Shown here piece after piece: positions 2,823-64,000 of a stretch of DNA of 64,000 nucleotides. This DNA is from Okamejei kenojei (Eukaryota). Position 1 is the stretch's first letter. Every line of letters begins with the position of its first letter. Below the pieces are notes generated by a model. The model saw nothing but the letters and a program-made list of their open reading frames with translations. It was not told the origin of the DNA and did not search any database. Position numbers and translations under genes: made by a program. The stretch covers positions 57,164,001-57,228,000 of the forward strand of contig CM069134.1 in the NCBI GenBank assembly GCA_035221665.1. Reading direction: 5' to 3'.

Positions 2823-3365
2823 TTCTCAATTAAACAGAATGCATCTGTCAACTGTTAGATTTGCATCTGTTAGATTTCATAGAACCTCAACCTCCTCTAT
2901 CTTCTCTGCTTCATGTTCCCGCTCTTTTAAGGTCAAGCAAATCTTTCTACCCAGCCTGAAGATATAATGCTAGTCTGGACTTTACATGAAGGCTACATAT
3001 GCAAGCAAATAAAGTAATAAGGCATCCAGACTAAAAATGCAAATTGCAGCTCTTTATGGTGCCTCTTAAAAGACTCTCAGCAGCCCAAGGACTGGTCTTT
3101 CAAGGTTCAAGAACAGCATCTCCCCGTCAACCATCAGGTTCTTGAACCACATTACACCAGCAACACACTCCTTCTAAACCACAACAGACTGCATCACAAT
3201 GGCTGCTCCACAAAGATTGTTTTTGTATTATCATGGTCTACTTTCCTATAACTAATAATAACATAATGAGACAAGATATCCATTTGATTGCTGTAATGGA
3301 TATCAACTCCAATATATGCCAATATAACAATTTCTTTATTTCTTATTGCTTAGCATGTGCTTTCT
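2823..3365. repeat. AT-rich spacer module (representative copy) made of Tigger-derived and Rex/Babar-derived pieces
   Basis: Starts ctcaattaaacagaatgc and ends ttagcatgtgctttc. Other copies start near 6635, 8980, 13118, 16660, 19072 (truncated), 22790, 25150, 29015 (left end deleted), 33330, 35750, 38203 (truncated), 41910, 44372, 47490 (left end deleted), 51498 and 55800. Confidence 0.92.
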
Positions 3366-3638: not shown

Positions 3639-4931
3639 AGAACATAGAAAATTAGGTGCAGGAGTAGGTCATTCAGCCCTTCGAGCCTGCACCGCCATTC
3701 AATATGATCATGGCTGATCATCCAACTCAGTATCTCGTACCTGCCTACTCTCCATACCCTCTGATCCCCTTAGCCACAAGGGCCACATCCAACTCACTCT
3801 TAAATATAGCCAATGAACTGGCCTCACTCAACCCTCTGTGGCAGAGAGTTTCCAGAGACTCACCACTCTCTGTGTGAAAAAAGTCTTTCTCATCTCGGTC
3901 TTAAAGGATTTTCCCCTTATCCTTAAGCTGTGACCCCTTGTCCTGGACTTCCCCAACATCGGGAACAATCTTCCTGCATCTAGCCTGTCCAACCACTTAA
4001 GATTTTGTAAGTTTCTATAAGATCCCCTCTCAATCTCCTAACATTCGCAGAGAGTATACAACCCGAGTCTATCCAGTCTTTCCTTCATAAGACAGTCCTG
4101 ACATCCCAGGAATCAGTCTGGTGAACCTTCTCTGCACCCTCTATGGCAATAATGTCCTTCCATCAGATTTGGAGACCAAAAACTGTACGCAATATCCAGG
4201 TGTGGTCTCACCAAGATCCTGTACTCAAATCCTTTTGCTAGAAAGCTAACATACCATTCGCTTTTTTCACTGCCTGCTGCACCTGCTGCCTACTTTCAAT
4301 GACTGGTGTACCATGACACCCAGGTCTCGCTGCATCTCCCCTATTTCCTAATCGGCCACCTTTAAATAATAGTCTGCTTTCCTGTTTTTGCCACCAAAGT
4401 GGATAACCTCACATATTATCCACATTATACTGCATCTGCCAAACATTTGCCCACTCACCCAGCCTATCCAAGTCACCTTGCAGTCTCCTAGCATCCTCCT
4501 CACAGGCTAACACTGCCCCCAGCTTAGTGTCATCCGCAAACTTGAGATATGCCTTCAATTCCCTCATCCAGATCATTAATATATATTGTAAATAGCTGGG
4601 GTCCCAGCACTGAGCCCTGCGGTACCCCACTAGTCCACTGCCTGCCATTGTGAAAAGGACCCGTTTACTCCTACTCTTTGCTTCCTGTTTGCCAGCCAGT
4701 TCTCTATCCACATCAATACTGAACCCCTAATACCGTAAGCTTTAAGTTTGTATACTAATCTCTTAAGTGGGACCTTGTCGAAAGCCTTCTGGAAGTCCAG
4801 ATATACCACATCCACTGGTTCTTCCCTTATCCACGCTACTAGTTACATCCTCGAAAAATTCCACTAGATTCGTCAGACATGATTTACCTTTCGTAAATCC
4901 ATGCTGACTTTGTCCAATGATTTCACCACTT
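3639..4931 (-). mobile_element. 5'-truncated CR1-clade LINE (degenerate reverse transcriptase, 3' UTR and tail)
   Basis: Minus-strand peptides [29 protein letters not shown] (4630-4815) and [31 protein letters not shown] (4409-4711) are classic CR1 RT motifs, frameshifted relative to each other. Tail catagaacatagaa at 3636-3649. tcccat is duplicated at 3633-3638 and 4932-4937, and the satellite monomer resumes in register. Confidence 0.95.
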
Positions 4932-58000: not shown

Positions 58001-61000
58001 GCGTCAATTCTAATGCCCATGCTCTCCTGTTTGGGCCTGGCTGGGTCTTATCCTCCTCGTCATCACTGATGCTTTCTTTTATTCAGTGTTGAATTGGTGA
58101 TGGCTCTGTCTTCAGTAAACAAGATGCATCATTCCAGGAGATTCCTAGAGTCCTTCCAGAATTAGTCATGCTATTTGACATCTTTCTTCTGGCTTTGCCC
58201 TGATGGTGAATACAATGACACTGCAAAGAGCCCAGCTTGGTTCTCAATTGCCATTAGCTCCAACTACTTCAGGCCTTGGTTTTCAAAGAGACAATCCGTG
58301 GTAGGGTTCTGATGCTGCTGTTCCTCAATGTATGTTCCTTCTTTCTTTTGTCCAGTGTTGACTTGGGTGTGGGTTCTGTCTTGTGACAAAGATAGGCTTC
58401 ATTACCAGAGATCCCTTGGCTTTCAGATGTCGCGTTTTGCATTTGTCATAACTATCATTGCCACTTGCTCCTCTTCGTCTTCTCTCCAACCTCCAGCACG
58501 CGTCTTCAGCGGCCGAGTCCTCTCTTGGGCGGCTGTATCCATCTTCCTCGCTCCCTGAGGGACCAGCTCACTCTCTTTAACCACCTTGCTTGGTTGACGG
58601 AAGTGGGTCAATTGTCGTAACTATCTTTGCTTCTTGCTCCTCTTCTTCATCTTCGATCCGGCACCCACCGCGGTAAGGTCCAACCTCCGGCACCCACCGC
58701 GGGCCCGTCTTCAGCTGCCAAATCCTCTCTTCGACGATGCAACTAGCTCTCTTCAACATCTTGTCTGTGTTTCCCACCAACAAGCAGCTTCAGTTGTGAA
58801 GCTCATGATCACCTGTTTGGTCCTGGATGGTTCTTTTCCTCATCGTCATTACTGGTATTTTCTTTTGTTCAGTGTTAAATTGGTGATGGCTCCATCTTCA
58901 GTCAAAAAGATGCATCATTCCTGGAGATTCTGCTTTGCTAGCAGAGTCCTCCCCCGGCTGGTCAGGCTATTTGACATCTTTCTTCTGCATTTGCCCTTCT
59001 GGTAACTCCAATGACACTGCAAAAAGGAGTCCAGCTTGGTTCTCAATTGTCATTAGCTCCAGGTACGTCTGGTGAGTTGCGATGCCTTGGTTTTCCCATA
59101 GACAATCTGTAGTAGGGTTCTGATGCTCCTGTTCCTCCCATGCATGTTCCTCATTTTGTCCAGTGTTGACTTGGGTGTGGGTTCTGTCATGTGGCAAAGA
59201 ATAGCTTAATTACCAGCGATCCCTTGGATTTCAGGTGTTACTTTCTGCATTTGACGTAACTACCATTGGTAGATGCTTCTCTTCGTCTTCTCTCCGTCCT
59301 CTGGTACCCACTGAGGGCCGGTCTTCGTACAAACTCCGGAAACCAACGTGGACCCGTCTTCAACCAACAAGCAGTAGCAGTTATGATGCTCATGCTGTCC
59401 TGTTAAGTCCTGGCTGTGTCTTTTCCTCCTCCATCATCATCACTGTTGCTTTCTTTTAGTCAGTGTTGAATTGGTGAAGGTTCCATCTTCAGTCAAAAAG
59501 ATGCATCATTCCTGGAGTTCATCCAGAGTTGGTCAGGCTAGTCGACATCTTTCTTCTGGCTTTGCCCTTATGGTGAATCCAATGGCACTGCAAAGAGGAG
59601 ACCTGCTTGGTTCTCAATCATCGTTAGCTCCAGCTACTTATGGTCATTTGTGATGCCTTGGTTTTCACCAGTGACAATCCGTGGTAGAGTTCTGATGCTG
59701 CTGTTCCTTCCACATGTATGTTCCTTCCACATTTTGTCCAGTATTGATTTGGGTGTGGGTTCTGACCTGTGACTAGGATAGGCTTCATTACCAGAGAATT
59801 CTTGGCTTTCAGGTGTCCCGTTCTGCATTTGTTGTAACTACGATTTGCAGTTGCTCCTCTTCGTCTTCTCTCCGTCCTCCGGCACCCACCAAGGGCCCGC
59901 ATTCGTCCAACCTCCGGCACCACTGCGGGCCCGTCTTCAGCTGCTGTATCCTCTCTCGGACAGCACATCTTGCTCTCTTTAACTTCCTCGCTTGTGTTTC
60001 CCGCCAAGAAGCAGCATCAGTTATGATGCTCATGCACTCCTGTTTGCTCCTGACCTGGTCTTTTCCTCCTCCTCGTCATCACTGGTGCTTTCTTTTATTC
60101 AGTGTTGAATTGGTGACGGCTCCGTCTTCAGTCGTCAGTCAAAAAGATGCATCATTCCTGGAGATTCCTAGAGTCCTTCCAGAGTTAGTCATGCTATTTG
60201 ACATCTTTCTTCTGGCTTTGCCCTGAATACAATGACACTGTAAAGAGTCCAGCTTGGTTCTCAATTGTCGTTAGCTCCAGCTACTTCTGGTTAGCTGTGA
60301 TGCCTCGGTTTTCAAAGCGACAATCCGTGGTAAGGTTTCTCAACGTATGTTCCTTCTTTCTTTTGTCCAGTGTTGACTTGGGTGTGGGTTCTGTCCTGTG
60401 ACAAAGATAGCCTTCATTATCAGCGATCCCTTGGCTTTCAGGTGTCGCGTTTTGCATTTGTCGTAACTATCATTGCCACTTGCTCCTATTCATCTTCTCT
60501 CCGACCTCCAGCACCCATCTTCAGCTGCCAAGTCCTCTCTTGGGCGGCTGTATCCGTCTTCCTCGCTCCCTGAGGGACCAGCTCACTCTCTTTAACCGCC
60601 TTGCTTGGGTGACAAAAGTGGGCCATTTGTCGTAACTATCTTTGCTTCTTGCTCCTCTTCTTCATCTTCTGTCCGGCACCCACCGCTGTAAGGTCCAAAC
60701 TTCGGCACCCACCGCACGCCCGTCTTCAGCTGCTGGATCCTCTCTTGGACGGCATACCTTACTCTCTTTAACCTCCTCAGTTGTGTTTCCCGACAACAAG
60801 CAGCGTCAGTTATGATGCTCATGAACTCATTGGTCCTGGCTGGGTCTTTTCCTGGTCATCACTTCTTTGCTTCTTGCTCCTTTTCTTCATCTTCTCTCCA
60901 GCATCCACCACAGGTCCGTCAAACATCCGGCACCCATCGTGGGCCCGTCTTCAGCTGCCGAATCTTCTCTTGGACAGCACACCTTGCTCTCTTTGACATC

Positions 61001-61575
61001 CTAGCTTGTGTTTCCCCACCAACAAACAGAGTCAGTTCTGATGCTCCAGTATGGTCATGGCTGGGTCTTTTCCTCCTCGTCATCACTGGTGGTTTCTTTT
61101 GTTCAGTGTTGAATTGGTGATGGCTCCATCTTCAAGCAAATAGATGCATTATTCCTGGAGATTCTGCCTTGCTTGCACAGCCCTTTCAGACATCTTTCTT
61201 CTGGCTTTGCCCTGATGTTGAATCCACTGTCACTGCAAAGAACAGTCCAGCTTGGTTCCCCATCGGCGTTAGCTCCAGCTACGTCTGGTCAGTTGTGTTG
61301 TCTTGGTTTTCCCCAGAGACAATCTGTGGTAGGGTTCTGTTGCTGCTGTTCTCCCATGTATGTTTTCTGCTCGGTCATTTCCTCCTCCTTTTGTCTAGTG
61401 TTGACTTGGATGTGGTGTTTGTCCTCTGACAAGGATAGGCTTCATTACCAGAGATCCCTTGGCTTTCAGGTGTCACTTTCAACTTTTATTGTACCTATTG
61501 CAACATGCTCCTCTTCTTTATCTTCTCTGTGACAACCACTGTGGGCCAGTCAGCAACCCGACAATTGTTTTTTCT

Positions 61576-61640
61576 AGGTTCAAGAACATCTTCCCATCAA
61601 CCATCAGTTTCTTGAACCACATTGCACCAGCAACACATTT
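61576..61640 (+). mobile_element. 3'-end fragment of a Rex1/Babar-type LINE (terminal copy; homologs in all full spacers, e.g. 3103-3180)
   Basis: Translates SRFKNIFPSTISFLN here and RFKNSISPSTIRFLN in the spacers, matching the RxxNSFFPxxIRLLN C-terminal motif of Rex1/Babar-like ORF2 (DUF1891). Confidence 0.6.
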
Positions 61641-62580
61641 CAGAACCGAAAGCACAATTCTACTCACTTTTGCATTATGTTCATTATTTGTTTGGTCTTC
61701 ATCAAAATAGCCGAAACCCTCTCAATAAAACAGAATGCATCTGTCAACCACTTGGCTGTTAGATTTCATAGAACCTCAACCTCCTCTGCTTCATGTTCCC
61801 GCGCTTTTAAGGTCAAGCAAATCTTGAGGCGACAATTATCTTTAATGAGTCTAATAACTTCTGCATGTCTTCAAACTCACCTCTTCACAACCTACTTTCT
61901 AAGCCAAACTCAACCTTTTCCTCTGGTTTTACATAGTCCATTACCAACCCTAAAACCTCTCAGGTCAGGCACTATATGCAGGCACAGGTTTTATCAAACA
62001 CCAATAACACGCCAATTGTGTCCCATGCATTACGAGCAAGCATTATGAAGTATCTAATGTTAAGATTTCCAGACATCTTGAACAGTCATGTTATAATCAC
62101 CAGTGGCCTTCATTACAGCATCAAATGCTTTGTTGAGATAATAAAAATTAAACATGCTAATCACACCCAGATCCATAAGTTGGAGGAGGGATGTAGTGTT
62201 CAACTTGAATATTTCTGTTCCTGCAATTTATGTTCTCACAATGACATTACTAATAAATTATGACACATGCTACAAAGTCTGAACATCGATTCTTCATCTG
62301 AACTATACTTGCATGTTTCTTAATTAAGCATTACAAAAATCGAGAAATAGGACATCCTGACATAAAAAATGCAAACAGCAGACTTAGGGAGTAAAATATT
62401 CAGCAGCTCTTACCAGACCTTTAGCTGTTCTGGACGAAGGAATGTTGTAGATGTACTTCATCTTCTCGGACAGGGGACAATTATCTCCCTGGACGGATCA
62501 CGTGCAAAATCTGGTCAAGTTAAGTTCACTGACCTTCAGTGAGTTTGACAGCTGAGGACTGGTAGCACTGATCTCACTCT
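61640..62580 (-). pseudogene. Decayed Tigger/pogo-family DDE transposase (TIGD1-like), with many frameshifts and stops
   Basis: Manual minus-strand translation gives, in the expected order: NIQV / LNTTSLLQLMDLGVISMFNFYYL (starting 62203; compare PNTTSLLQPMDQGVI) / VQDVWKS / NIRYFIMLARNAWDTI / NLCLHIVPDLRGF / KVGCEEV / EDMQKLLDS / LSPQDLLDL / AREHEAEEVEVL*NLTAKWLTDAFCFIE / DEDQTNNEHNAKVSR. Support upstream of ~62270 is weak and no TIRs were seen. Confidence 0.78.
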
Positions 62581-62591
62581 TCAGATTAATC

Positions 62592-63959
62592 CAAAAGGGA
62601 CACACAGTTGCAAACGGGGCACACAGTTGCAAACGGGGCACACAGTTGCAAACGGGGCACACAGTTGCAAAAGGGGCACACAGTTGCAAAAGGGGCACAC
62701 AGTTGCAAAAGGGGCACACAGTTGCAAAAGGGGCACACAGTTGCAAAAGGGGCACACAGTTACAAAAGGGGCACACAGTTGCAAAAGGGGCACACAGTTG
62801 CAAAAGGGGCACACAGTTGCAAAAGGGGCACACAGTTGCAAAAGGGGCACACAGTTGCAAAAGGGGCACACAGTTGCAAAAGGGGCACACAGTTTGCAAA
62901 AGGGGCACACAGTTGCAAAAGGGGCACACAGTTTGCAAAAGGGGCACACAGTTGCAAAAGGGGCACACAGTTACAAAAGGGGCACACAGTTACAAAAGGG
63001 GCAGCACAGATTCAAAAGGGGCACACAGTTGCAAAAGGGGCACACAGTTGCAAAAGGGGCACACAGTTGCAAAAGGGGCACACAGTTGCACACAGTTGCA
63101 AAAGGGGCACACAGTTGCAAAAGGGGCACACAGTTGCAAAAGGGGCACACAGTTGCAAAAAGGGGCACACAGTTGCAAAAGGGGCACACAGTTGCAAAAG
63201 GGGCACACAGTTGCAAAAGGGGCACACAGTTGCAAAAGGGGCACACAGTTGCAAAAGGCAACAGTTACAAAAGGGCACACAGTTGCAAAAGGCGCACACC
63301 AGTTGCAAAAGGGGCACACAGTTGCAAAAGGGGCACACAGTGCAAAAGGGGCACACAGTTGCAAAAGGGGCACACAGTTGCAAAAGGGGCACACAGTTGC
63401 AAAAGGGGCACACAGTTGCAAAAGGGGCACACAGTTGCAAAAGGGGCACACAGTTGCAAAAGGGGCACACAGTTGCAAAAGGGGCACACAGTTGCAAAAG
63501 GGGCACACAGTTGCAAAAGGAGCACACAGTTGCAAAAGGGGCACACAGTTGCAAATGGGGCACACAGTTGCAAAAGGGGCACACAGTTACAAAAGGGGCA
63601 CACAGTTACAAAAGGGGCACACAGTTACAAAAGGGGCACACAGTTACAAAAGGGCACACAGTTTACAAAAGGGGCACACAGTTACAAAAGGGGCACACAG
63701 TTGCAAAAGGGGCACAGTTGCAAAAGGGGCACACAGTTACAAAAGGGGCACACAGTTACAAAAGGGGCACACAGTTACAAAAGGGGCACACAGTTACAAA
63801 AGGGGCACACAGTTACAAAAGGGGCACACAGTTACAAAAGGGGCACACAGTTACAAAAGGGGCACACAGTTACAAAAGGGGCACACAGTTGCAAAAGGGG
63901 TACAGTTGCAAAAGAAGCACACAGTTGCAAAAGGCGCACACAGTTGCAAAAGGCACACA
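62592..63959. repeat. 19-bp minisatellite (gcaaaaggggcacacagtt)n, ~70 copies
   Basis: Directly visible. Variants are gcaaacgggg (first few units), acaaaagggg (clustered after ~63590) and degenerate units at the ends. Confidence 0.98.
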
Positions 63960-63961
63960 TT

Positions 63962-64000
63962 TCAATAGTCAAGTCACTTTTATTTCTATAGCACATTTAA
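63962..64000 (-). mobile_element. Possible 3' terminus of a LINE (L2-like) running off the window
   Basis: The minus strand reads ...gctatagaAATAAAagtgacttgactattga: a poly(A)-like signal followed by a short (acttg)-type tail. Only 39 bp are visible. Confidence 0.35.

Follow-up and report, generated by a model that had tools for sequence, protein, structure and literature searches.

The window analysed here is a 64,000-nucleotide stretch of the Okamejei kenojei genome (C4:57164001-57228000; genome size 2.76 Gb). Unprefixed positions, both in the initial annotation of this DNA and in the present report, are window coordinates, and C1, C4, C35 and similar labels denote contigs of the same genome. 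The window holds a long array of non-coding tandem repeats, which ends against a transposase fossil and is followed by a minisatellite. Its features, together with one module lying upstream, are as follows.

1-61525, plus strand: array of non-coding 685-bp monomers, diverged from one another and grouped between spacers into units of 2.3-5.9 kb; starts 3.7 kb upstream of the window
2824-2945, unstranded: spacer piece 1, example copy
2945-3360, unstranded: spacer module B, example copy; present in 15 of the 17 spacers
60862-61525, plus strand: terminal monomer, 93% like its counterpart in the copy at C4:26.97 Mb
61530-61637, unstranded: remnant of another module B paralog, joined to the transposase end
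61635-62200, minus strand: decayed Tigger/TIGD1-like (DDE_1) transposase, C-terminal third, with many frameshifts and stops
61720-61825, minus strand: donor of spacer piece 1, in the transposase C-terminal region behind the catalytic domain
62215-62400, unstranded: non-transposase module, an old paralog (70-75%) of the second piece of the spacer; contains 62347-62382
62592-63953, plus strand: 19-bp minisatellite, 72 copies
C4:57159887-57160288: left-edge module (a module B copy without piece 1), ~4.1 kb upstream of the window
Starts of spacer piece 1 (n = 17): 2824, 6635, 8979, 13118, 16661, 19072, 22791, 25150, 29034, 33331, 35751, 38203, 41909, 44372, 47510, 51499, 55802

With the part upstream of the window included, the whole array measures ~65 kb. 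One further copy of spacer piece 1 lies 2 kb upstream of the window, bringing the number in the array to 18. Two of the 17 spacers (19072 and 38203) lack the second and third pieces. Within the window, the array is organised in higher-order blocks of 16-19 kb with 93-97% identity, and a CR1-like LINE insertion interrupts it at 3639-4931. The terminal monomer is unlike the monomers preceding spacer piece 1 (81-86%), and the core of the remnant at 61530-61637 is a dispersed repeat found elsewhere in the genome. A second partial copy of the fossil lies just outside the window, after the 19-bp minisatellite. This minisatellite also adjoins the fossil at C9, C11 and two C1 copies; it occurs in five of ten array-bearing stretches and is absent at C35.

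The minus-strand segment 61635-62200 corresponds by its sequence to the C-terminal third, in decayed form, of a Tigger/TIGD1-like transposase. The initial annotation had recognised it from a Tigger/pogo motif, and NTTSLLQLMD is indeed read at 62200 on the minus strand. The frameshift-aware alignment that it proposed as a check, running from 62200 to 61635, scored 86.0 bits over profile positions 333-531 of 564, against 15.1 ± 1.0 and at most 16.8 in 20 shuffles; a smaller profile returned 70.2 bits. None of the six whole-frame Pfam scans of the window gave a match, because the fossil is too decayed. The window piece alone scored 14.9 bits against DDE_1, under the cut-off of 22, and its C35 paralog scored 35.8 bits (E 7.5e-9), over the same cut-off. 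Intact DDE_1 genes of the same genome match the window at E 1.5e-5, and the best named matches are TIGD1-like proteins of coelacanth and echidna. Only the last 35-40% of the transposase is covered, in broken form, with non-transposase modules truncating the fossil at either end. For the N-terminal half (CENP-B_N and HTH_Tnp_Tc5 domains), no profile match before position 297 was found in the eight regions scanned. A whole Tigger/pogo element carries terminal inverted repeats and a TA target duplication; 60800-64000 holds no inverted pair of 14 bp or more. Compared with Tigger/TIGD1-like transposases, the fossil has the C-terminal part of the DDE_1 domain and a helical tail, but lacks the DNA-binding domains and the terminal repeats.

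An older, less frameshifted transposase fragment, seen only at C35 (C35:23.9006-23.9013 Mb), is directly joined to a monomer piece. It is 68% like the window fossil. A full HMMER protein search with this copy returned 23 matches, the named ones mostly TIGD1-like, and DDE_1 was present in all 11 of the top matches scanned; a word-indexed protein search gave 0 of 403 candidates. Elsewhere in the genome, DDE_1 (TIGD-like) sequences form nine long open frames, 552-618 residues in length.

Paralogs of the fossil were found on C1, C5, C9, C11, C13, C35 and at C4:26.97 Mb; every one of them adjoins a separate array, and these arrays span 4 to 65 kb. Counted as lower bounds, the array-bearing stretches number at least ten on seven contigs, three of them neighbours on C1, and two further stretches, the C6 copy and a fourth one on C1, consist of flank only (array in 10 of 12 stretches); C6 also lacks the fossil. 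The common block is ragged, 10-70 kb long and ~86-92% alike between contigs, so that its copies lie at and below the identity of at least 90% that we take as the working threshold for segmental duplications. In nine array-bearing copies, the flanks align collinearly with C35 over 11.6-36.4 kb. The collinear sequence includes more than 1 kb of non-repeat sequence with intron-exon structure on other chromosomes, as in an interchromosomal segmental duplication. The flank tree is star-shaped, with inner branches of 0.002-0.006 against tips of 0.045-0.07, and in its unrooted form C35 does not fall outside the copies. No circular permutation was seen in the comparison of block copies.

Pieces of the fossil also recur inside the arrays of other loci. 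They run from 61635 to 61779-61807 at C11 (4), C13 (2) and C1 (9) and as far as 62165 at C5 (2); the array at C35 contains a second, complete copy, and none was found inside the C9 array. These locus-specific internal pieces indicate that the fossil end entered the repeat unit via three or more types of junction, which is what duplications overrunning the edge of the array would be expected to produce. The unit combines module B with its dispersed-repeat core, a monomer run and a transposase piece, which corresponds to the T2T definition of a composite repeat, and the structure as a whole, a composite macrosatellite carried by an old interchromosomal segmental duplication, is of a known kind.

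Further arrangements were observed among the copies. At C9:74.532-74.595 Mb, a 63-kb sister array has spacers without the Tigger piece, some of them with pieces matching a hAT element and an insertion found in it. Four neighbouring partial block copies at C1:67.80-68.02 Mb are up to 99% alike, some of this sequence being noisy. A second, degenerate tandem region with weak monomer matches lies between the fossil and the kinase gene at C35:23.917-23.927 Mb and in the copies of that region.

The right flank of the block carries this gene, an IKK-family kinase whose best solved match is IKK-alpha (66.3 vs 62.8 bits). Seven kinase exons are open at C35:23.930-23.951 Mb, and later exons extend up to 23.987 Mb; apart from C35, these later exons occur only in a second IKK on C38. 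In the copies at the window locus, C9, C11 and C5, some kinase exons bear stops or frameshifts, and the first-exon region is also present at C6; broken first exons are seen in five copies, the window locus among them. The broken IKK-alpha-like first exons of the window locus lie at C4:57243810-57258829, 80-95 kb from the window start. A genome search with exon 2 gave four candidates, all within the block family. Because the only complete IKK-alpha-like gene is at C35 and the exons in the copies are broken, C35, upstream of this gene, is likely the source of the block, judging from its gene content. In exons 1 and 3, the copies have residues in common that differ from those of C35, which fits either a common intermediate or a C35-specific change. 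The nearest gene found to the left of the likely source array encodes a PH and SEC7 domain (PSD-like) protein and is seen as an exon at C35:23.822 Mb, on the minus strand. A gene beside one of the paralogous loci matches ray proteins best and shark proteins next, in line with a batoid host. Synteny probes had no match on C35, with CwfJ matches on C6 and C21 and Band_7 matches on C12 and C33.

In the C4 copy as in the C6 copy, an intact hAT terminal repeat marks the start of the C35-like sequence, which falls on an identical base in the two, and the sequence that they have in common ends within the hAT element, 26 bases from its far end in C6. This single hAT insertion is common to C4 (C4:57.114-57.117 Mb) and C6 (C6:46.733-46.737 Mb) and absent from C35 and C1. 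Beyond the element, C4 and C6 share nothing with each other or with C35 over the 8-9 kb examined. The same C35 start base and the same hAT end, with nothing common beyond, indicate that C4 and C6 descend from one intermediate. A full-length relative of the element has terminal repeats and an 8-bp target duplication.

It could be argued from this boundary that the block moved as a transposon-driven unit, in which a left-end hAT with a since-lost partner carried tens of kb in a burst. Besides the common start at an intact terminal repeat and the stop of the shared sequence within the element, this would accord with the Pfam hAT dimerisation match (21.9 bits), with a hAT family of at least 40 copies that are 86-91% alike, a range similar to that of the block copies, and with the star-shaped flank tree. 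However, a hAT end is found in only 2 of the 11 non-source stretches, the outer repeat is missing in both C4 and C6, and no hAT end occurs at any of the nine right block boundaries inspected. Moreover, the block ends are ragged, the C1 copies pass the site without the element, and the same pattern results if hAT copies recombine or if a deletion starts at a hAT end. A hAT macro-transposon would have ends on both sides and an 8-bp target duplication round the block, whereas one inner end in two copies is all that was seen, and we consider transport of this kind quite unlikely. A wider proposal holds that the block beside the IKK-alpha gene is a cartilaginous-fish core duplicon, which a single hAT-driven burst carried, together with first exons, to seven or more further chromosomal sites, each site then growing its own composite macrosatellite and independently taking in the end of the Tigger fossil; as a whole, this appears unlikely.

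At the window locus, the initial annotation had the satellite partly built from the fossil at its own edge, and the first spacer piece bears this out. The spacer copy at 2824-2945 aligns with 61720-61825 at 82.8% with gaps (E 9e-31), and piece 1 scored 127-168 in all 17 spacers, against 30.9 ± 4.3 and a maximum of 49 in 200 shuffles of the terminal segment. As had been claimed, it falls in the C-terminal region behind the catalytic domain, at profile positions ~463-503. Taken alone as transposase, piece 1 reached 15.4 bits against a shuffle maximum of 13.9, and the spacer copies 11.8-13.1; being barely or not above shuffles, it owes its transposase identity to the whole alignment. Its origin from this locus's own copy is also upheld, by one site and by mean identity: a private base is shared by 19 of 19 C4 rows and absent from 26 of 26 other rows of the piece 1 alignment, and the mean identity is 93.5% to the window's terminal copy and 92.5, 91 and 88-89% to the seven other terminal copies (15 of the 17 spacers compared). 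The idea that the terminal copy is an unchanged seed has to be given up. It carries a 9-bp deletion absent from 17 of the 18 spacer copies, and thus has since lost nine bases that were present when it donated piece 1. The spacers share an 8-base loss, and most also share a 15-base doubling. The contribution of the fossil to the satellite is small, however, with only 3.1% of the array (1,916 of 61,530 bases) derived from the transposase and no transposase signal in profile alignment of the 685-bp main monomer.

The second spacer piece had been assigned to the same terminal fossil from a resemblance between ~29183 and 62347-62382. This resemblance is real, with scores of 55-75 in 15 of 15 spacers tested against a null maximum of 36 (300 shuffles), and the match to the terminal segment spans 62270-62381; it is the weaker one, however, since the same second pieces score 191-220 against the left-edge module. 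In all 16 spacers compared, module B is 90.6-94.8% like the left-edge copy and 69.9-75.2% like 62215-62420, and a terminal-type piece 2 was found in none of the 16. Neither module B nor 62215-62590 gave a transposase signal, the latter scoring 11.8 bits against the transposase profile with a null maximum of 20.8. A third shared piece, missed by the initial annotation, pairs 61550-61637 with spacer positions 3077-3167. Its core is dispersed (256 candidates, with matches on C17, C22 and C4:2.4 Mb). Its motif would fit a LINE tail, but DNA alignment to one such tail did not exceed the shuffles (22 against a maximum of 31).

The spacer had been read as an internally deleted Tigger element, with pieces 1 and 2 both from the terminal copy, which was captured and amplified. 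In its favour, the pieces stand in the same order as in the terminal segment, both beat shuffles, and piece 1 comes from this locus's copy; but piece 2 is 91-95% like the left-edge module as opposed to 70-75% like the terminal one, neither candidate donor of piece 2 has a transposase signal, and the spacer runs on into sequence absent from the terminal segment and into the left-edge monomer register. This reading is therefore very unlikely. The two pieces have separate donors, and, as the second piece is neither transposase nor from the terminal copy, the spacer is better described as a junction. An internally deleted Tigger derivative or MITE as the satellite unit, with both pieces from one element and the ends kept, was likewise rejected. 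The transposon piece that makes up 3% of the array has no terminal repeats.

The second piece matches the left-edge module and the array restarts as at the left edge, so that the spacer is likely a junction between the right and left ends of a duplication. We accordingly think it probable that the spacer is the scar of one head-to-tail duplication junction, leading from a fossil piece of ~105 bases to the left-edge module, and that it was then multiplied passively. In 15 of 15 spacers with module B, the array resumes at monomer profile position 241-246, compared with 246 at the left edge, and spacer module B extends to 3360 like the left-edge copies, while right-hand copies at C11 and C1 end at 3258-3263. 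The join of piece 1 and module B has 3-7 bases of microhomology. In the module B tree, the spacers form one group (81/84), with one change in 79% of bootstrap trees, which gives moderate support to a single origin of their module B; the left-edge module B is not clearly closer to the spacers than the C9 or C1 copies of B. Before piece 1, the array stops at monomer position 547-555 in 15 of 17 spacers. The monomer there is not the terminal one, so that a plain duplication needs an extra deletion.

A possible course of events would start on C35, where non-coding repeats upstream of the IKK-alpha-like gene harboured an old TIGD1-like fragment. A short burst of duplication may then have placed copies of the 10-70 kb around this fragment on other chromosomes, at least some of them via an intermediate copy. 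At the window locus, a junction would have arisen that led from an internal monomer into the C-terminal piece of the fossil and on into the left-edge module, either by one template-switch event or by duplication followed by deletion. Unequal crossover would have raised this unit to 18 copies, and the 16-19 kb blocks at 93-97% identity would be the record of later amplification rounds. Function is neither needed nor indicated for the spacer or the array.

The monomer itself was also considered as coding or transposase-derived sequence, and this was rejected. The consensus of 175 near-full copies contains no open frame, the monomer lacks codon periodicity (p 0.50-0.83), frame-keeping deletions are not in excess (81 of 411), and a transposase match is lacking. 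The same results weigh against the view that fossil and array are the remains of a once-functional fusion gene, made up of a transposase exon and repeated exons and placed head to head with the IKK-alpha-like gene. At C35, the fossil and monomers do lie on the strand opposite to the kinase gene, 13-29 kb upstream of it, and the older copy abuts a monomer piece; in addition, the minus strand is purine-rich, and TIGD1-like fusions are among the protein matches. Given the non-coding monomer, and given that no intact relative or parent of the older copy was found in the genome (1 self match), such a gene is highly improbable. A search with the CENP-B box motif gave 0 exact matches and 13 one-mismatch hits, 12 of which are one repeated site. 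There is next to no chance that the repeats are assembly or sequencing artefacts, for although some C1 copies are noisy, the copies differ by 3-25%, have a nested tree-like structure and carry copy-specific insertions, and short contigs from three independent runs extend along the array.

According to the human T2T repeat study, composite repeats such as TELO_Comp, LSAU-BETA and AluSx-WaluSat are tandem units of at least three repeated parts, including transposon pieces, which spread to several chromosomes by segmental duplication before their arrays grew to site-specific sizes (10.1101/2021.07.12.451456). The present structure resembles them in its tandem unit of at least three parts, its spread by segmental duplication and its local expansion. 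On the other hand, its transposon part is a ~110-base scrap of transposase coding sequence gained at an end-to-end junction, separately at several loci, its copies are older (86-92%), and its host is a cartilaginous fish. The ape core duplicons (DA/Xiao; PMC5088589) are similar in having one ancestral locus, a satellite-bearing core, gene fragments, many chromosomes and ragged flanks, but the block described here is far more diverged, and its C6 copy lost both array and fossil. Core duplicons have one core common to all blocks and are enriched at evolutionary rearrangement breakpoints; the likeness seen here is one of structure, with the array in 10 of 12 stretches. The mechanism of core duplications is called open in that source (PMC5088589). 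Transposon pieces in satellites are well known, and in the 'first steps' model (PMC6947457), duplication and unequal crossover fix part of a transposon within a tandem unit. This is also the case here, except that the monomer has no transposon origin and the transposon piece is a minor, terminal-repeat-free component. No Tigger/pogo coding-region case among satellites appears in the part of Table 1 of PMC6947457 that was compared. In a literature search, no report of this locus, or of such duplications in sharks and skates, was found beyond general assembly work.

Taken together, these loci form a readable natural series, in which one ancestral array is found at ~10 sites in lengths of 4 to 65 kb, each with its own junctions. 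It illustrates how DNA from the flank of an array, in this instance a scrap of transposase, becomes part of a satellite unit with no contribution from the transposon as such. The broken IKK-alpha-like exons dispersed with the block can mislead annotation and read mapping. More generally, the block extends ape-style dispersed duplications with gene fragments to a cartilaginous fish and, if the hAT link is true, it would provide a mechanism for such duplications.
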